The notes beneath the pieces were generated by a model. It had not been told where the DNA came from, ran no database searches, and worked only from the letters and a program-made list of their open reading frames with translations. 64,000 nt of DNA, taken from IMG/VR virus record IMGVR_UViG_3300047444_000174; one strand, given 5' to 3'. The stretch comes from an uncultured virus (IMG/VR IMGVR_UViG_3300047444_000174). Taxonomy: Duplodnaviria; Heunggongvirae; Uroviricota; Caudoviricetes. Shown piece by piece: positions 2,404-63,537 of the stretch (its first letter is position 1; each line of letters begins with the position of its first letter). A program made the translations under genes and the position numbers.

Positions 2404-2463
2404 TCGAAGCAGAAGCAAAACGGTGATCGAAACAACCAAGCGGGAATGGATGGGAGGTGGAGA

Positions 2464-2673
2464 ATGGCAGCGCAATTGATACCTGTGTCATCGTGGGCGC
2501 AAGCTGTCTTCGGGGAGCATCGGCCGCACGCCAACACGCTTCTTAACTGGATCAAGAATGGCCGCATCAGGCCCGTACCACGGAAGGTGGGGCGTGAATA
2601 TTTTTGCCGTCCGGATGCAGAATATGTCGACCCCATAGCCGAAAAAATCGAGAGGATGATCGGTGGCCGCTAG
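2464..2673 (+). CDS. xis: Excisionase (lambda Xis-like winged helix)
   Basis: W..NGRIRPVPRKVGREYFCRPDAEY motif; directly upstream of and overlapping int. Confidence 0.85.
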   Translation: MAAQLIPVSSWAQAVFGEHRPHANTLLNWIKNGRIRPVPRKVGREYFCRPDAEYVDPIAEKIERMIGGR

Positions 2674-3790
2674 ACGACGGAATGCAGATCGGCGCAACTG
2701 GCCGGCAAATCTGTACAAAAACTCGAAGGGATATTTCTGGTTCCGTAATCCGGCCGACGGAAAGACAGTCGGCTTGGGTTACGACCAGAAAATAGCCATG
2801 CTTCAGGCGAAGACGGCAAATGCGGAATTGCTGCGGCGCAAGGGGGAGGTGTCATTGATCCAACGGCTGGATGGCAACGTCCTGACTCTTGCCGAATGGG
2901 TAGACGAATACGAAACGAAATATGCAGAGCGTGCCGACGCAAAGCCGACAACCCTAGCGGCCATGCGTCACCAGTTGAATCCGCTCCGCAATGCAGACTT
3001 CGCAGTGCAGGCCGTGGACAAGGTCACGACCCGGAACATCTCGGACTTGATTGAGGAAGTTAAGCTCCGCGGCGCAACGATGGCTACAAGGGTTTTGCAG
3101 CGAGCGATATTCGTGTTTCGCGCAGCTGAGGCGAGGGGTTTAATCAAGGTCGGGTCCAACCCAGCCGTCCCTATCGAAAAGCCCAAGGTTGTGGTCGCGC
3201 GCACGCGCCTCACTCTTGACGAGTTTAAAGCGGTCTTGGGAAAGGCGCGTGAGGACGGAAATCACTGGATGGAGAATGCCATGCTCCTGGCGGTGCTTAC
3301 CGGTCAACGGCGCGAAGACATCTCGGAGATGCTGTTCAGTCAAGTAAAAGACGGGTTTCTCTGGATTGAGCAGAGCAAAGGGCGCGACGGTCATCAGTCT
3401 AAAGTTCGCCTTCCTCTTACCTTGCGGCTTCAGGCAATAGGCATGTCTCTAGACGAAGTCGTACGTCAATGCCGAGACGCCGTGGTGTCGAAAAACCTGA
3501 TTCACCATCGAAAGGCTTGGGGCAAGGCTCAAGCTGGCTCTCATGTCAAGCTGGGGACGCTTAGTCGAGCATTCCAGACCTACCGAGACATGGCAAAAAT
3601 TAGTGTCGAAGATGGCAGGACTCCGCCAACCTTCCACGAGATCCGGTCACTGGCAGCGAGGCTCTATGCGGACGAATATGGGCCAGAAGTTGCTCAGGCT
3701 ATTCTCGGCCACAAGACGGCCAAGATGACGTCGCTGTATCGCGATTCACGTGGTCGGGAATGGACCGACGTGAAGATTGGGAGCGCATGA
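2663..3790 (+). CDS. int: Tyrosine integrase, lambda-type with N-terminal arm-binding domain
   Basis: TGQRREDI (R), TFHEIRSL (HxxR), LGHK, terminal Y in SLYRD. Confidence 0.97.
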   Translation: MAARRRNADRRNWPANLYKNSKGYFWFRNPADGKTVGLGYDQKIAMLQAKTANAELLRRKGEVSLIQRLDGNVLTLAEWVDEYETKYAERADAKPTTLAAMRHQLNPLRNADFAVQAVDKVTTRNISDLIEEVKLRGATMATRVLQRAIFVFRAAEARGLIKVGSNPAVPIEKPKVVVARTRLTLDEFKAVLGKAREDGNHWMENAMLLAVLTGQRREDISEMLFSQVKDGFLWIEQSKGRDGHQSKVRLPLTLRLQAIGMSLDEVVRQCRDAVVSKNLIHHRKAWGKAQAGSHVKLGTLSRAFQTYRDMAKISVEDGRTPPTFHEIRSLAARLYADEYGPEVAQAILGHKTAKMTSLYRDSRGREWTDVKIGSA

Positions 3791-3821
3791 ATTTTGGATA
3801 GATTTTGGATAGATTTTGGAT
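3791..3821 (+). repeat. Three tandem 11-bp direct repeats ATTTTGGATAG, probable integrase arm-type sites; a further copy TTTTGGATC at 4117-4125
   Basis: Repeats read directly from sequence, immediately after the int stop. Confidence 0.75.
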
Positions 3822-3834
3822 CAGCGTTTTCCGC

Positions 3835-3993
3835 TCATGGCTCAAATCCGTCTGGATATTCGACTACCAGATCAGTCTGAGCGACCGCAACACAAGGCAG
3901 GATAAGGCCTTCAGCATTTTCCTCCTTGCTGAGTCCGGGCCACTCAATAACGTAGGAGACGGTGCCGCTGACCACGCGACAGATGCAGGTCCG
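3835..3993 (-). pseudogene. 3' half of a 2Fe-2S ferredoxin gene (gene-restoring segment of attP)
   Basis: Translates RTCICRVVSGTVSYVIEWPGLSKEENAEGLILPCVAVAQTDLVVEYPDGFEP*; no start codon, in-frame TAA directly upstream. Confidence 0.8.
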
Positions 3994-4095
3994 TTACCTG
4001 CCATTCATAGGCGCCAAACGCTTGCTGGATAAGGGTTTTGCAGATTAAATCGGTGGGTTCTGGCGACCTTAAAAGCCACTGAAGCACACAAACAA

Positions 4096-4108
4096 AATCA
4101 AACACTTA
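4096..4108 (+). promoter_or_regulatory. IHF binding site
   Basis: AATCAAACACTTA matches WATCAANNNNTTR exactly. Confidence 0.7.
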
Positions 4109-4142
4109 CAGCGGCGTTTTGGATCGGGTCGCCGACTTCCTA

Positions 4143-4820
4143 TCAATCGATCAATGAGCCCGTAGCTCCGTCATCGACTTTTGGTTTTCTAGGCGGCAAC
4201 GGCTTCGGCTCAGCCGCCATCTCCTCAGCCGGAAACAGATTCAGAAATGACCGCGCTTCATCGGTCGATCGAGCGCCCAGCCAGTCGCCATATTCCTCCG
4301 GCCGCAAGATCACGACCGATCGCTTTTCTGCGCCGGGCCGATGGAAGCGGCGCATGAGCGGATGCTCATCGGCGTTGACCGTCAACATGGTGAACGACAG
4401 AGCCACGCCGTCAGGATCCTCCCACGCACGCCACAGGCCCGCAATCGCGAACGGCTTGCGGTCAGGCATTCCAATCTGCCATCGAACTGCTTTCCCGGTC
4501 TCCCAGTTCGGCTCGTAGAAGCTCGCGCAGGGTATCAGGCACAGTTGCAACTTCTTCCACGCACCGCTGAAGCTGCGACGCTCGCCGATCGTCTCCGTCC
4601 GCGCGTTCATCGTGTCGAACTTCTTTACGTGAGCGGGAATGTGCTTGTACGGCACAAGGCCGAACGTGGCGGGGTCGGTGGATGACGCGCCGTCTACTCG
4701 CCTCAGAATCGGGGCGACATAGTCCTTGTAGGTCTCTGGCGGATAGTCGAACCGCGGAACCGGAAAATCGGTGAACGCGTCGAACAGATCGGCTTGAAGT
4801 GGCCGGTAGTTGGTGCACAT
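4143..4820 (-). CDS. SOS response-associated peptidase (SRAP/YedK/HMCES family, abasic-site protection)
   Basis: N-terminal MC, NARTET, FYEP, AIAGLW, SFTMLT, H in RFHRP. Confidence 0.92.
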   Translation of the reverse strand: MCTNYRPLQADLFDAFTDFPVPRFDYPPETYKDYVAPILRRVDGASSTDPATFGLVPYKHIPAHVKKFDTMNARTETIGERRSFSGAWKKLQLCLIPCASFYEPNWETGKAVRWQIGMPDRKPFAIAGLWRAWEDPDGVALSFTMLTVNADEHPLMRRFHRPGAEKRSVVILRPEEYGDWLGARSTDEARSFLNLFPAEEMAAEPKPLPPRKPKVDDGATGSLID

Positions 4821-8578: not shown

Positions 8579-10015
8579 TTATCCGACTTTGAACACTCGC
8601 GTCTCGGGCGGCACGACGTACGTCCGGTTCTCGCCAGCGACCGTGAATAACCGGTTCTCTGCGTAGACGTGGTAGATGTCCGCATCAAGGACGATAGGCG
8701 GAATCGAACGAGCTTCAACCGATGACGACAGCGCGCCTAGTCCGGCCGATATATAAGCGCTCTGCAAGCAGGCAAGCGAACCGGCCGACTGCAAGGCGCC
8801 TAGGGCGCCGGATGCTATTGCCCAATTGTTCGGGACAGCAATCACTGATGCACTGGATGACAGCGCACCAAGCGTTGATCCGACATTCGCCGCCAAATTC
8901 TGTGTCGCCGATCCCGCAGCAAGCAACGAAAGCGAACTGTTTGCCGCCGCGGAGCGATGCTGCGTTCCTGTGATGCCCGACGCAAGTGCGCCGAGTGCCG
9001 GCGAAGCCGCAGCGGACGATGCCTGCGCGGCCTGCCCACTTGAAGAAAGCGTCCCTAGAACTGAAGCTGCAACTGCCGTTGTGTTCGATGTGTTGCTTGC
9101 AATGACACTCGACGAGAATGCGCCAAGCGCACTGTTCGCAGTACTGGTCCGAGATTGAACGCCAGTGCCGCCAGACGACAAGGCGCCCATCACACTCGCC
9201 GCCGAAGCTATGCGCGACTGTGATGCGACTCCCTGCGAAGACAGGCCACCGAGCGACGACATCGAAACAGCCGCTGCGGCGATTACCGCTGTCGCAGAAG
9301 ATGCGAATGCCCCCAGTGTTCCGGAGGCCAATGCGGAACGGGATGAAGCGGCGGTAGCCGACGAGTTCAGACCTCCCAGCGTTCCGCTTGCGACTGCGCT
9401 ATTGCTCGCCGACGCAAGCACCTTCGCAGCCTGGACTGTGACGTTACAGAAATTCCCGGCACCCGCGTTGACCGTGGTTAGCGTAACTGCGAGGTTGAGC
9501 GTCTGACTCGCGCTGTTCGCGCTGTACGTGAGCGTCGTGAGGTAGTCAGTGGATACGCCAGCCGCTACACCAGTGGGCGTGTGCGTAACCGCAGTAGCAC
9601 TGCCGTCCGACAGTGTGGCGACCAGCTTCGCCGCAGCAGTATTCGCCCCGGTGTCGCCGCCGTACATCCCCCACGCAATGACGACTGTGCGTGTCGTGGT
9701 ATCGGCGGGGACGGTGAACTGAAGCCCATTGCCGACCACCGCCGAACCTGACGCCGGAGTGAAGATACCGTCCCCGCTGGTAGCGCTGGTGGTCGGCGTG
9801 CCGTCTGTCCACGTGACGCTGCGTACATCGGGCCCGTAACCGCCAAGCGTGACGCCAGTACCGATAGCGGTAGGCAAAGAGATGGTCGAGCCGCCGCCAC
9901 TCTTTCGGTTCGGGCTTGTCGCGCTCTGCGGGAACTGGATCCAGTCCGTCTGCGCGGGCGACGAGAGATTTACCGCGGACGTGTTGACAACGGTTGAACC
10001 GGATAGGCTACCCAC
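8579..10015 (-). CDS. Fibre-like protein: N-terminal beta-rich domain plus about 11 Ala/Ser/Gly repeats of about 21 aa
   Basis: Repeated (S/T)LG(A/G)L(S/A)S core. Confidence 0.65.
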   Translation of the reverse strand: MGSLSGSTVVNTSAVNLSSPAQTDWIQFPQSATSPNRKSGGGSTISLPTAIGTGVTLGGYGPDVRSVTWTDGTPTTSATSGDGIFTPASGSAVVGNGLQFTVPADTTTRTVVIAWGMYGGDTGANTAAAKLVATLSDGSATAVTHTPTGVAAGVSTDYLTTLTYSANSASQTLNLAVTLTTVNAGAGNFCNVTVQAAKVLASASNSAVASGTLGGLNSSATAASSRSALASGTLGAFASSATAVIAAAAVSMSSLGGLSSQGVASQSRIASAASVMGALSSGGTGVQSRTSTANSALGAFSSSVIASNTSNTTAVAASVLGTLSSSGQAAQASSAAASPALGALASGITGTQHRSAAANSSLSLLAAGSATQNLAANVGSTLGALSSSASVIAVPNNWAIASGALGALQSAGSLACLQSAYISAGLGALSSSVEARSIPPIVLDADIYHVYAENRLFTVAGENRTYVVPPETRVFKVG

Positions 10016-11545: not shown

Positions 11546-13312
11546 TTAGTGTTGTGTGTCGAACCACGACGAAGGGACGACCACGGAATCAGGCGATGGA
11601 TTCACCGGCGTTGGGATGTCTTTCACCGCAATATTCGAATAGCGGTTGAACGCCGTGTTGAAAGTCTCGGCGTCGACCTTGTCGCGAAACTGATTCCAGA
11701 ACTGCCATTGCGGGACGGCGGTCGTGTAGGCAATCGACTTGAACCCGAGCCCGTTCTGCACCGAACCGAAGAAAAACTGCTTCACTAGATACCCGGTTTT
11801 CGGATCAACTGCGGCGCGCATCTGCGCCACGACGGGCGTTTCTTCACGGTTAAAGATCGGCCACGCCTGCTGCAACGGGTTGAACCGGCCGATGACCAAC
11901 GCCGCAGTTATGACCGATGCGGCGAGCAGTGGCACGGCCGGATCGATCTTCGTGTGGCGAGCGACCAGATAGGCGGCAATGGCAAACGGGATGATGAGCA
12001 GGTCGATCAGGTTCGGCCAGAACGGCACTGAGACCCGAGCCTTGAATGCCATCCAGCCGACCACGACAGCCGCGACGAAGGTAACGATGCGCGCGGGCGT
12101 GATCGAGAAGCCCGTACGCACGACCACATGCACCGCGAAGATGAGCAGCAGCACACCTTGCGCGTACTGCATGCGGCTCGGTTGAACGTTCTCCCACAGC
12201 AGCAGCCGGCCGATGGACGGCGGGATGGGCAGCAGTTCCCACGCGAGCATCATCGCCAGCGCGATACCGAGAATGAGCGAGCGGCGCAGGAACAGCCGGT
12301 CTTTCACTGCGGCTGGCAGATTGCGATAGTTCGCAAAGCATATGGCCAGCAGGACAAAGAACACGCCGAACGTTCCCGCCTCGCAGATGTTCGAGTTCGG
12401 CACCAACTCGTGCAGATGCCCGTCAAACATCGCGAAGGGGAAGATCTGCGACGCAGCCTGGCGCCAGCCCACACCGCCGCCCATGACGACGCGCCCGCCC
12501 GGATACAGCGTCTTCATCGTGGCGAGCAGATAGTCCTTCAGGTAGAACACCGTCGTGGCCGCTGACGCGCCGGCCGCAACCAGCAGCCCGATAAACGGAG
12601 CCGGGCGAAGCCACTCCCTGCCGTAAGCCAGCACGAAGACTGCGCCGACGAATGCAACCGAGACGATGTACGGCGGGTAGAACATCTCGATCATCATGCT
12701 GGTGAGCAGCCAGTAAAACAGCAGCAGGCGCCCCCACTTCGGAATGCGGTGCACGAATAGAACGGCCATGGCAGCGCCGTAGAGCGCGAACAGCACGCCC
12801 TTGTCGGTCCACCAGAACTGTGAGTAGGCGGTGAAGTACGAGCAGAAAGCCAGCAGAACAGACGCCGCGCGCCCAGCGCCTATGACCCGGAACAGGTACG
12901 TATAGCCAAGGATGAACAGGGCGAATACAGCGAAATAGTGGAAGGAGAACGCGTAGGCCGGGTTGACGAAGCGGTACAGCATCATCGTCGGCTTGAAGAA
13001 CCAGCCCCAGTCGTTGATCGGCACCGCAAACGCGATGCGCATATCATCGTTGTAGGGCGACGTCTTGTTATAGCGCTCGAGGTGATTGTTGACCGATCCC
13101 GCAGTCAGCGATGTGATGACCGCCCATTCATCCGACCGGATCGGTCTGGGCTCGCCAGCCACGATGCCGGTGTTGTTTGCGTGGAGCGCGTGCAGCACAA
13201 GCCCGTATGACGACGGCGACCACGTTTGCGAGACATACACCACTCCCAGGAGCGCAATGGCGATCGGGAGCAACCATCGAAACGTGCAAAAACGCTTGAT
13301 ATATGTTGGCAT
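11546..13312 (-). CDS. Polytopic membrane protein, putative GT-C-type glycosyltransferase (surface-conversion moron)
   Basis: About 12 hydrophobic segments; RSDEW acidic motif in first large loop; own terminators; sits between fibre and lysis genes. Confidence 0.6.
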   Translation of the reverse strand: MPTYIKRFCTFRWLLPIAIALLGVVYVSQTWSPSSYGLVLHALHANNTGIVAGEPRPIRSDEWAVITSLTAGSVNNHLERYNKTSPYNDDMRIAFAVPINDWGWFFKPTMMLYRFVNPAYAFSFHYFAVFALFILGYTYLFRVIGAGRAASVLLAFCSYFTAYSQFWWTDKGVLFALYGAAMAVLFVHRIPKWGRLLLFYWLLTSMMIEMFYPPYIVSVAFVGAVFVLAYGREWLRPAPFIGLLVAAGASAATTVFYLKDYLLATMKTLYPGGRVVMGGGVGWRQAASQIFPFAMFDGHLHELVPNSNICEAGTFGVFFVLLAICFANYRNLPAAVKDRLFLRRSLILGIALAMMLAWELLPIPPSIGRLLLWENVQPSRMQYAQGVLLLIFAVHVVVRTGFSITPARIVTFVAAVVVGWMAFKARVSVPFWPNLIDLLIIPFAIAAYLVARHTKIDPAVPLLAASVITAALVIGRFNPLQQAWPIFNREETPVVAQMRAAVDPKTGYLVKQFFFGSVQNGLGFKSIAYTTAVPQWQFWNQFRDKVDAETFNTAFNRYSNIAVKDIPTPVNPSPDSVVVPSSWFDTQH

Positions 13313-62410: not shown

Positions 62411-62782
62411 ATGCTCGTTTATCTTTGCGGTCCCATCAATGGTTGCACCGATGCCGAATGCAACGACTGGCGCTCGTATGCGAAAAGCCGCTTGTCCGAC
62501 ACGCTGGACCCGATGCGCCGCGACTACCGCGGACGCGAAGCGGAGTCCGTCAATGAAATAGTCGAACTAGACAAGATCGATGTGCAGGAATGCGATGTCG
62601 TAATCGCGAACTGCCCGAAACCCAGCGTCGGCACCAGCATGGAAGTGTTCTATGCATGGGAATTGGGCAAGAAAATTGCCGCAATCGCACCAGAGCCGGT
62701 GAGCCCATGGCTGCGCTATCACAGCACCCGGGTGTTCGGAACGATCAAAGAAGCAATTGACTGGATCGAGGCGCTTGCATGA
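62411..62782 (+). CDS. Nucleoside 2-deoxyribosyltransferase-like protein
   Basis: VYL.GP, D...V.ECDVVIA, SVGT.ME..YA..LGK. Confidence 0.82.
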   Translation: MLVYLCGPINGCTDAECNDWRSYAKSRLSDTLDPMRRDYRGREAESVNEIVELDKIDVQECDVVIANCPKPSVGTSMEVFYAWELGKKIAAIAPEPVSPWLRYHSTRVFGTIKEAIDWIEALA

Positions 62783-63537
62783 TTCCGTATCATGGGTTGC
62801 CAATCACGCCAGCAACTGCCGCCGCGCGAGCCATCTCCGGCGGGCATGCGTTCATCTCGTTTCGCCACCCGGACCAATTATCGCTTGCTCTTGATATTGC
62901 TCAGTCGTTCGCGGTGGACAACGGAGCTTTTTCAGCATGGCGAAGCGGCAACCCTGTTACGGACTGGAGTCGGTATTACGAGTGGGTGGCAGAGCTTCAC
63001 CGCTACCCACCGTTCGATTTTGCAGTTATTCCCGATGTCATCGACGGGGACGAGGCCGCAAACGATGCGCTTATCACCGAATGGCCGTGGCGCGAACACG
63101 CTCCTTGGGTGGGCGCCCCGGTGTGGCACTTACATGAAAGCCTTGAACGCCTGCAACGACTGGCGATGGAATGGCCGCGCATCTGTCTCGGCAGTTCTGG
63201 GGAATTCGCTACGGTCGGGTCGACATCTTGGTACATGCGAATGGCGGAGGCAATGGATGTCATTTGTGATCGAGACGGACGGCCAGTGTGCAAGATTCAT
63301 GGTTTGCGCATGCTGAACCCGGACATCTTCACCCGCTTCCCCTTCGCCAGCGTCGATAGCACCAACATCGGCCAGAACATCGGAATCGACTCGGCATGGC
63401 GCGGCACTTATCCGCCGGCGACGAAAGAGTCACGCGCGATGGTGATGCGCGAGCGGATCGAGAAAGAGCAGTCGCCGATCTTTTGGGATCGATCCGCTGC
63501 GCCGATTCAGGCCGGGCTAGACCTGTTCGCCGCCTAA
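62779..63537 (+). CDS. TGT/DpdA-like guanine transglycosylase-fold protein
   Basis: VDNGAF, IPDVI, PVWH, LGS, IHGL and SVDST align with TGT-family DSGGF/D/PV/GG/H.LG/catalytic D. Confidence 0.7.
   Translation: MIPYHGLPITPATAAARAISGGHAFISFRHPDQLSLALDIAQSFAVDNGAFSAWRSGNPVTDWSRYYEWVAELHRYPPFDFAVIPDVIDGDEAANDALITEWPWREHAPWVGAPVWHLHESLERLQRLAMEWPRICLGSSGEFATVGSTSWYMRMAEAMDVICDRDGRPVCKIHGLRMLNPDIFTRFPFASVDSTNIGQNIGIDSAWRGTYPPATKESRAMVMRERIEKEQSPIFWDRSAAPIQAGLDLFAA

Follow-up and report, generated by a model that had tools for sequence, protein, structure and literature searches.

Why would a phage carry, just behind its integrase gene, half of a ferredoxin gene that has no start codon? This locus raises that question. 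The window, the whole stretch of 64,000 nucleotides analysed here, corresponds to positions 1-64000 of a virus record that consists of one contig of 66,471 bp. Comparison with integrated relatives, host genomes and metagenomes makes it very probable that the segment is the attP of a temperate phage, which is predicted to integrate in the Fe-S-loop codons of a Paraburkholderia ferredoxin gene and to complete that gene with its own half.

The last 100 bases of the virus record are repeated at 47-146, which would fit a circular assembly; an exact terminal repeat starting at base 1 was searched for in the record and not found. Terminase, portal, major head, tail sheath and baseplate genes are present together with CI-like repressor and RecE/RecT-like genes, and the virus is therefore classified as a temperate tailed phage with a sheath. 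Its sequence is present in rhizosphere metagenome runs, with at least half of its words found in 2 of 16 rows, one of which could be where the record came from.

Three further genes were noted. One, at 62779-63537 (+), is queuine tRNA-ribosyltransferase-like (phrog_887, E 3e-71), a possible pointer to 7-deazaguanine DNA modification. A hydrophobic membrane-type protein of 588 aa without a PHROG match (11546-13312, minus strand) lies beside lysis and tail-fibre genes and resembles, by position only, a surface-modifying conversion gene. A repetitive Ala/Ser/Gly-rich protein of 478 aa, also without a PHROG match (8579-10015, minus strand), adjoins the lysis genes.

A start-less ferredoxin 3' half lies behind the integrase gene

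The integrase region contains the following features:

2446..2673, plus strand: excisionase-like gene (xis), Pfam Exc PF07825, E=2.6e-8
2663..3790, plus strand: lambda-type tyrosine integrase gene, 375 aa (PF09003, PF22022, PF00589)
3835..3993, minus strand: replacement 3' half of a 2Fe-2S ferredoxin gene, 52 codons plus stop, start-less

The integrase has arm-binding, central and catalytic domains. Behind its gene, the minus strand reads M-N-G-R-stop and then RTCICRVVSG...WPGLSKEENAEGLILPCVAVAQTDLVVEYPDGFEP-stop. The open codons span 3993-3838 and the stop ends at 3835; no start codon follows the upstream stop, and the frame is missing from the ORF list. The preliminary description had already pointed to this 52-aa frame behind N-G-R-stop, and to its absence from the ORF track.

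The fragment covers positions 41-76 of the 77 positions of Pfam Fer2 (E=0.0019; 18.5 bits, slightly missing the cut-off of 21). Among the candidate longer proteins, 689 of 711 match it at E<=0.001, the best at 84% identity (E 6e-20). Full-length Burkholderiaceae proteins are up to 84% identical to it, and its best named matches are Paraburkholderia 2Fe-2S ferredoxins of about 99 aa. The original assignment to a ferredoxin is upheld by these matches. No match to the fragment was found among 50,697 records of cultured phages; two weak viral matches (L003, L004) proved to be an unrelated protein with DLVVEYPDG in common.

The first residue of the fragment aligns directly behind the host sequence S-C-R-N-G-T-C. 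The fragment holds the third and fourth cluster cysteines; the first two ligands are absent. The cysteines of the motif C-x4-C-x2-C...C are the ligands of the 2Fe-2S cluster, and cysteines 42, 47, 50 and 81 of a natural hybrid protein from P. monticola align with those of the solved ferredoxins 1frr and 5h57. The cut therefore falls between the second and third cluster ligand. This hybrid contains the motif within a complete Fer2 domain (PF00111, E=1.3e-14). An auxiliary metabolic ferredoxin encoded by the phage was ruled out by the adjacent upstream stop, the lack of a start codon and the two missing ligands.

Related elements are integrated in the ferredoxin gene

Matches to the integrase (Int) were found at 205 loci, of which 15, from five elements, reach at least 70% Int identity. 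In all four of these elements with enough flank, a ferredoxin follows int at a distance of 54-63 nt; the fifth (L197), which has the arm repeats described below, breaks off 49 nt past int. Among 190 loci with Int identity of 57% or less, 142 had at least 300 nt of downstream flank (124 distinct flanks), and none of these 142 has a ferredoxin beside int.

Two of the relatives can be followed from end to end. In P. monticola JC2948 (G001, locus L005), whose integrase is 76% identical to that of the window, int is abutted by an intact 99-codon gene, the completed gene at attL. An orphan 3' half stands at attR behind a TAG, 17.7 kb away on the same contig. The 17.7-kb insert is lower in GC than its flanks and has int, xis, baseplate, tail-fibre, NinB and lysozyme genes in common with the window's phage. 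Behind the orphan half are two genes of 64-66 aa, presumably YqaE-like and DUF1653-like, followed by a YheO-like gene; the same pair and YheO-like gene also follow the intact ferredoxin gene in uninfected species.

In a Burkholderiaceae MAG (G002, locus L034), the completed gene spans two contigs overlapping by 55 nt, and the orphan half lies behind a TAA, 45.8 kb from it. The integrase of this element is a C-terminal piece, and no other gene is held in common with the window. A frameshifted transposase-like gene, which we take to be Tn3-type by its likeness, was observed inside this 45.8-kb island near attR (L167 1-1000). In addition, on metagenome contig L196 an intact gene of 107 codons adjoins int, and host genes come after it.

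The natural hybrids pass Pfam Fer2. Both two-ended elements, which are relatives of this phage, have the whole gene at one end and an orphan half at the other. Because these related elements sit inside the ferredoxin gene and complete it, the window's phage likely does the same. This is the arrangement foreseen in the preliminary description, with an attB in the Fe-S-binding codons and int abutting an intact ferredoxin in lysogens; the two relatives are integrated there and not at another locus. The proposal that lysogeny swaps in a phage C-terminal half holds for these relatives, while integration of this very phage was not seen: contigs of seven sequencing runs were searched for a lysogen or integrated junction and none was found. 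Loose ends near 3954-3995 in runs X5 and X7 were rejected as 36-38-nt chance matches, and two X4 contigs starting at 3984 were left out, since a strain bubble fits them equally well.

Further lysogens were looked for among genomes of the genus and the family. G001 is the one genome with two matches to the gene among 213 of the genus (at most 23 candidates scored per genome), and the one with Int above 57% identity among 396 scored genomes of the family. A further virus record (L204/L225, IMGVR_UViG_2775507265_000001) matches the P. monticola prophage. One of its ends lies 9 nt past int, and at the other end it takes in the orphan half that belongs to the host; its borders are therefore shifted at both att sites.

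Anatomy of the probable attachment site

The elements of the attachment site in the window are as follows:

3791..3821, minus strand: three tandem arm-type repeats ATCCAAAAT, 11-bp period, putative P' arm
3980..3986, minus strand: putative C' core-type arm, CAGATGC on the other strand (CAnnT register, symmetry scan)
3987..3993, minus strand: putative 7-bp strand-exchange overlap CGGACCT (start of attL/attR identity and register scan)
3994..4000, minus strand: C core-type arm CAGGTAA, ending in the in-frame stop
4096..4108, plus strand: IHF-consensus site AATCAAACACTTA, putative P arm
4117..4124, minus strand: P-arm copy of the arm-type repeat, offset -131 (-130 in the G002 attR)

The position of the crossover is indicated by the integrated relatives. 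The attL and attR sequences agree over 17 bp in G001 and over 23 bp in G002, in both cases exactly from the C of the Arg codon onward, and left of this codon the identity is 0 bp in both elements. The overlap CGGACCT spans the Arg codon, the Thr codon and the first base of the Cys codon. In a symmetry scan of six sites and 68 registers, this 7-bp register has the best flanking symmetry (34/54; mean 15.3, SD 5.9), and its sequence is identical between the recombining partners. Tyrosine integrases typically require identity over 7 bp (PMC10111431, in the part consulted).

The inverted repeat GCAGGT-CCGTT-ACCTGC, with which the preliminary description had equated the junction, is indeed present at 3985-4001. 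As a core it was rejected in favour of the 7 bp at 3993-3987: its spacer differs between recombining partners, its register lies 3 bp off-centre and its symmetry is 25/54 versus 34/54. In this genome, 22 inverted repeats have perfect arms of 6 bp around a 5-bp spacer.

Most host and phage arms have the form CAnnT, which we take to be that of the lambda core sites; the two other phage-side left arms, CTCGTAG and GATTTAA, depart from it. The residues N-G-R of the window are not conserved: the other phage-side arms read I-G-S-stop and S-G-I-stop, and the Gly codon and the stop alone are kept. An in-frame stop stands right before the overlap in all three phage-side arms (window 3994-3996, minus strand, TAA; L168 1510-1512, TAG; L167 1510-1512, TAA). 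As these elements are related, the three stops are not three independent cases. They may be part of the core site or may keep read-through from reaching the orphan half.

In all four elements, the distances of the arm repeats from the overlap are +171/172, +182/183 and +193/194. With these fixed offsets beyond the fragment, the fragment is therefore placed inside the P' arm. On the other side, the IHF-like site lies at about -115, and the G002 attR has one at the same offset with one mismatch. Exact matches to the IHF consensus number two in the 66.5-kb genome, one being 4096..4108. Directly past the P arm is an SRAP (SOS-associated peptidase) gene at 4143-4820 (-). The P-arm repeat and the IHF-like site were looked for in the P. 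monticola attR and not found; with this loss, an insert of just 17.7 kb, and an Int reduced to a C-terminal piece in G002, both two-ended elements look decayed.

The locus thus combines a three-domain Int and an Xis with arm-type repeats on both sides of the core and, by sequence comparison only, an identical overlap of about 7 bp between inverted core-type sites. Judged by these features, the segment appears to be a gene-restoring attP of the lambda type. Replacement sequence in attP is described for icd and tRNA genes (PMC10111431, in the part consulted).

A mechanism can be proposed on this basis. The lambda-type Int, with IHF, would exchange strands over the 7-bp overlap CG-N-ACCT, for which the near-symmetric Gly-Thr-Cys-Arg-Thr-Cys-x-Cys codons (GGCAC...GTGCC) would supply the core-type sites. 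In the resulting hybrid, cysteines 42 and 47 would be host-encoded and 50 and 81 phage-encoded, and cluster binding is predicted to be retained. Should the prophage then decay by deletion, the phage half could stay as the sole host copy, which would explain the mosaic single-copy genes of several species.

The host gene and its attB

The ferredoxin gene is present in 207 of 213 genomes of the genus and single-copy in 206; the 213 genomes counted here and below include the unpublished genome G179, of which all other claims are independent. For sequence comparison, the gene was taken from 84 other genomes of the genus and was readable in 83. One locus (L267, G116) was left out, its gene having been missed by the motif scan. 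Of the sampled places, 79 were drawn from a listing ranked by similarity to protein P0003; as this query is a phage-type protein, the sample of 83 is enriched.

The overlap holds two wobble positions, and 17 variants of it occur among the 83 host genes. Seven of the 83 have CGGACCT, and the host genes of G128 and G201 are identical to this attP over 14 bp. Which species the phage can lysogenise would be determined by the wobble bases in the codons for Arg and Thr.

A candidate product of such an event is protein P0001, known as a protein alone. Its N-terminal half is identical to P. graminis-type proteins at 45-46 of 46 residues, and its C-terminal half matches that of the window at 41 of 49 residues, versus 33 of 49 for the P. 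graminis-type proteins' own C-terminal half. P0001 resembles a hybrid in which a P. graminis-type N-terminal half is joined to a window-like half.

Three single loci are recorded separately. A gene cut at a contig end near attB (G067) was treated as an artefact with an adapter-like contig start, presumably Nextera sequence. A premature TAG in the ferredoxin gene of L312 (G195) removes the last residues after ETDV. Locus L262 (G068) has one arm-like motif at +176.

Mosaic single-copy genes in other species

Nine of the 83 single-copy genes switch to phage-type sequence at the attB point (G037, G055, G101, G033, G118, G011, G010, G098 and G157). They carry 4-13 of 15 phage-diagnostic bases. Compared with the nearest host-type gene, the stretch before attB differs at 2-10 of 120 sites and the stretch behind it at 34-49 of 140 (Fisher p 8e-4 to 6e-12); the nine were picked after trees and site scores had been viewed, and these p-values are therefore descriptive. 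Among 73 controls, median divergence is 5.8% before and 10% after attB, and three reach p<0.001. An unbiased DNA pattern found the phage-type signature in 9 of 213 genomes, namely G001, six of the mosaics, G003 (L261) and G068 (L262), the last two being possibly older scars.

As a group, the mosaic genes are probably scars that past lysogeny left and that became fixed. It is at the attB codon itself that the divergence sets in, and extra genes lie directly behind seven of the nine: the distance from attB to the next host gene is 649-1598 nt in these seven versus 168-330 nt in 55 others. The gap contains a HigB-like toxin gene with an HTH partner, or an acyltransferase-3 gene (four proteins were scanned and the others assigned by sequence likeness). 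The case is stronger for G037 and G033 than for the group, since both keep two arm repeats, decayed, at the phage offset, and G033 DNA matches that of the window through the repeats. G098 and G157 have no insert and revert to host type part-way, the pattern that recombination between two halves would give.

An alternative for the mosaics, which we regard as unlikely but deserving weight, is that they are products of ordinary homologous transfer between species, or an ancestral state that phages captured. The donor could have been a native lineage: five species that form their own gyrB clade have partly phage-like halves with intermediate scores and long gaps to the next gene, and this clade may be such a lineage or an older scar. 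Arm repeats are kept in two of the nine mosaics, and no int remnant was found within their fetched flanks; of five mosaic genomes searched for a related Int, four gave none and G101 has one of 39% identity elsewhere. Moreover, 45 of 140 sites separate G010 and G157 from the window's half, and fewer separate them from host-type halves. Against these points, besides the sharp onset of divergence, the retained repeats and the extra genes, the carriers are scattered. In a gyrB tree of 28 genomes the eight carriers present need about six changes, and a single carrier clade is rejected (p-AU 8e-87); the long branches suggest that gyrB itself may be mosaic in some genomes.

A 129-nt tree of the halves gives a weak split of phage-type from host-type (61/89), and a topology constrained to unite both P. 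monticola halves is not rejected (p-AU 0.06). Uniting the phage halves and seven mosaics in one clade is likewise not rejected (p 0.39), which does not demonstrate such a clade.

Signs that the phage half is maintained as protein

Between element halves, pN is 0.12-0.25 and pS 0.53-0.65 (four of six pairs among four elements). The open frame, the cysteines and the WPG/LPC motifs are kept in all four elements, where DNA identity is only 68-77%. In the phage halves the encoded protein is conserved as silent positions diverge. Their GC3 is 0.49-0.67, whereas 42 host genes average 0.76 (range 0.57-0.92). The comparison of host and phage C-termini, suggested in the preliminary description, gives two different pictures: in P. 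monticola 13 of 49 residues differ, and in G002 none do, with seven synonymous changes. In G037 (L282 1467-1790) and L196 (3614-3937) the ferredoxin stop is lost and the frame runs into the first arm repeat; the protein therefore ends in D-P-K, encoded by an Int binding site.

It is very improbable that the site has been correctly read while the fragment itself is passive, captured host DNA kept to space the P' arm sites from the core, a working hybrid not being required. Length alone could be under selection, as the distance from the fragment to the arm sites is fixed. Relative to a related strain, four of the six listed differences in the window's fragment are non-synonymous, as neutrality would give, and the fragment has Asn where Lys is nearly invariant. 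Furthermore, a named ferredoxin subfamily (plant-type fdx, YfaE) was not obtained for the gene, as none of the 11 matched NCBIfam families reaches its cut-off. Conversely, a passive spacer is at odds with a frame, cysteines and motifs conserved in four divergent elements, with pN far below pS, and with a gene that nearly every genome of the genus carries.

The chance that the fragment arose as a chimera of assembly, or was captured once with no connection to integration, is negligible: although the window comes from a metagenomic virus record whose phage was not seen as a lysogen, the same junction recurs in a second viral contig (99.8% identity) and, unbroken, in runs X3 and X6 (95-99%), and divergent elements, two of them two-ended, have the same layout.

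Read as an attP, the locus yields a predicted host for an uncultured phage of the rhizosphere and one more attachment site inside a coding gene. For this small protein, matched alleles of host, hybrid and likely scar type form a natural set, and neutral repair versus changed host function is therefore directly testable. A far-reaching version, which we consider doubtful, is that one phage family has time and again replaced half of this near-universal ferredoxin, that at least nine present-day species now have a wholly or partly phage-donated C-terminal half and no remaining prophage there, and that the swap changes redox or partner properties, so that lysogeny would act as domain shuffling. 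The exchange beside the cluster would then be from MTAGRVRY-type to LVSGTVSY-type, a detail to be held just as tentatively. Two warnings follow for annotation. A single-copy, near-core gene can be half phage-derived, and prophage border calls here take in the orphan half and drop the phage half (L204/L225).

Comparison with known systems

The mechanism as such is known, from e14 and phage 21 in icd and from a Serratia case whose target is a 4Fe-4S ferredoxin. Neither an attB in a 2Fe-2S ferredoxin gene nor this Paraburkholderia site was found in the literature searched, though large site tables may list it; the word ferredoxin is absent from the main text of PMC13626063, PMC12884075 and PMC10111431.

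A close parallel is icd of E. coli, which is listed as the site of phage 21 and e14 (PMC12540744). In the portions of the sources consulted, e14 leaves a 163-bp pseudo-icd and supplies the gene end (PMC6379469), and icd alleles of chimeric type occur in natural isolates (PMC13626634). Both systems thus combine a tyrosine integrase, a site in a protein-coding gene, a replacement 3' segment in attP, an orphan pseudogene at the far end (icdC) and chimeric alleles in nature. They differ in extent: according to the same portions, about 163 bp of the 416-codon icd are displaced, whereas here it is over half of a 99-residue protein. Unlike in icd, two of the four cluster ligands lie on each side of the cut, and between the halves roughly a quarter to a third of the residues are different.

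Serratia phage vB_SspS_OS31 and many relatives lie inside a 2[4Fe-4S] ferredoxin gene (PMC7556043, as far as consulted). There too, a prophage sits in the cysteine-motif codons of a small ferredoxin gene, with many relatives at homologous genes. The family, however, is unrelated (pfam13183, two 4Fe-4S clusters, versus PF00111, 2Fe-2S, here), and the hosts are enterobacterial. Similarly, integration of the Rac prophage in the coding gene ttcA gives strain-specific protein variants, but the variation is N-terminal and in enterobacteria (PMC6379469, in the same portion).

In its machinery the site resembles lambda and HK022. It has a three-domain Int (37% identical to HK022 Int) with xis upstream, three tandem P' arm sites, a P-arm site, an IHF-like site and a 7-bp overlap with CAnnT-type arms. 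The lambda attB is intergenic, whereas here the P' arm, of about 200 bp, doubles as coding sequence.
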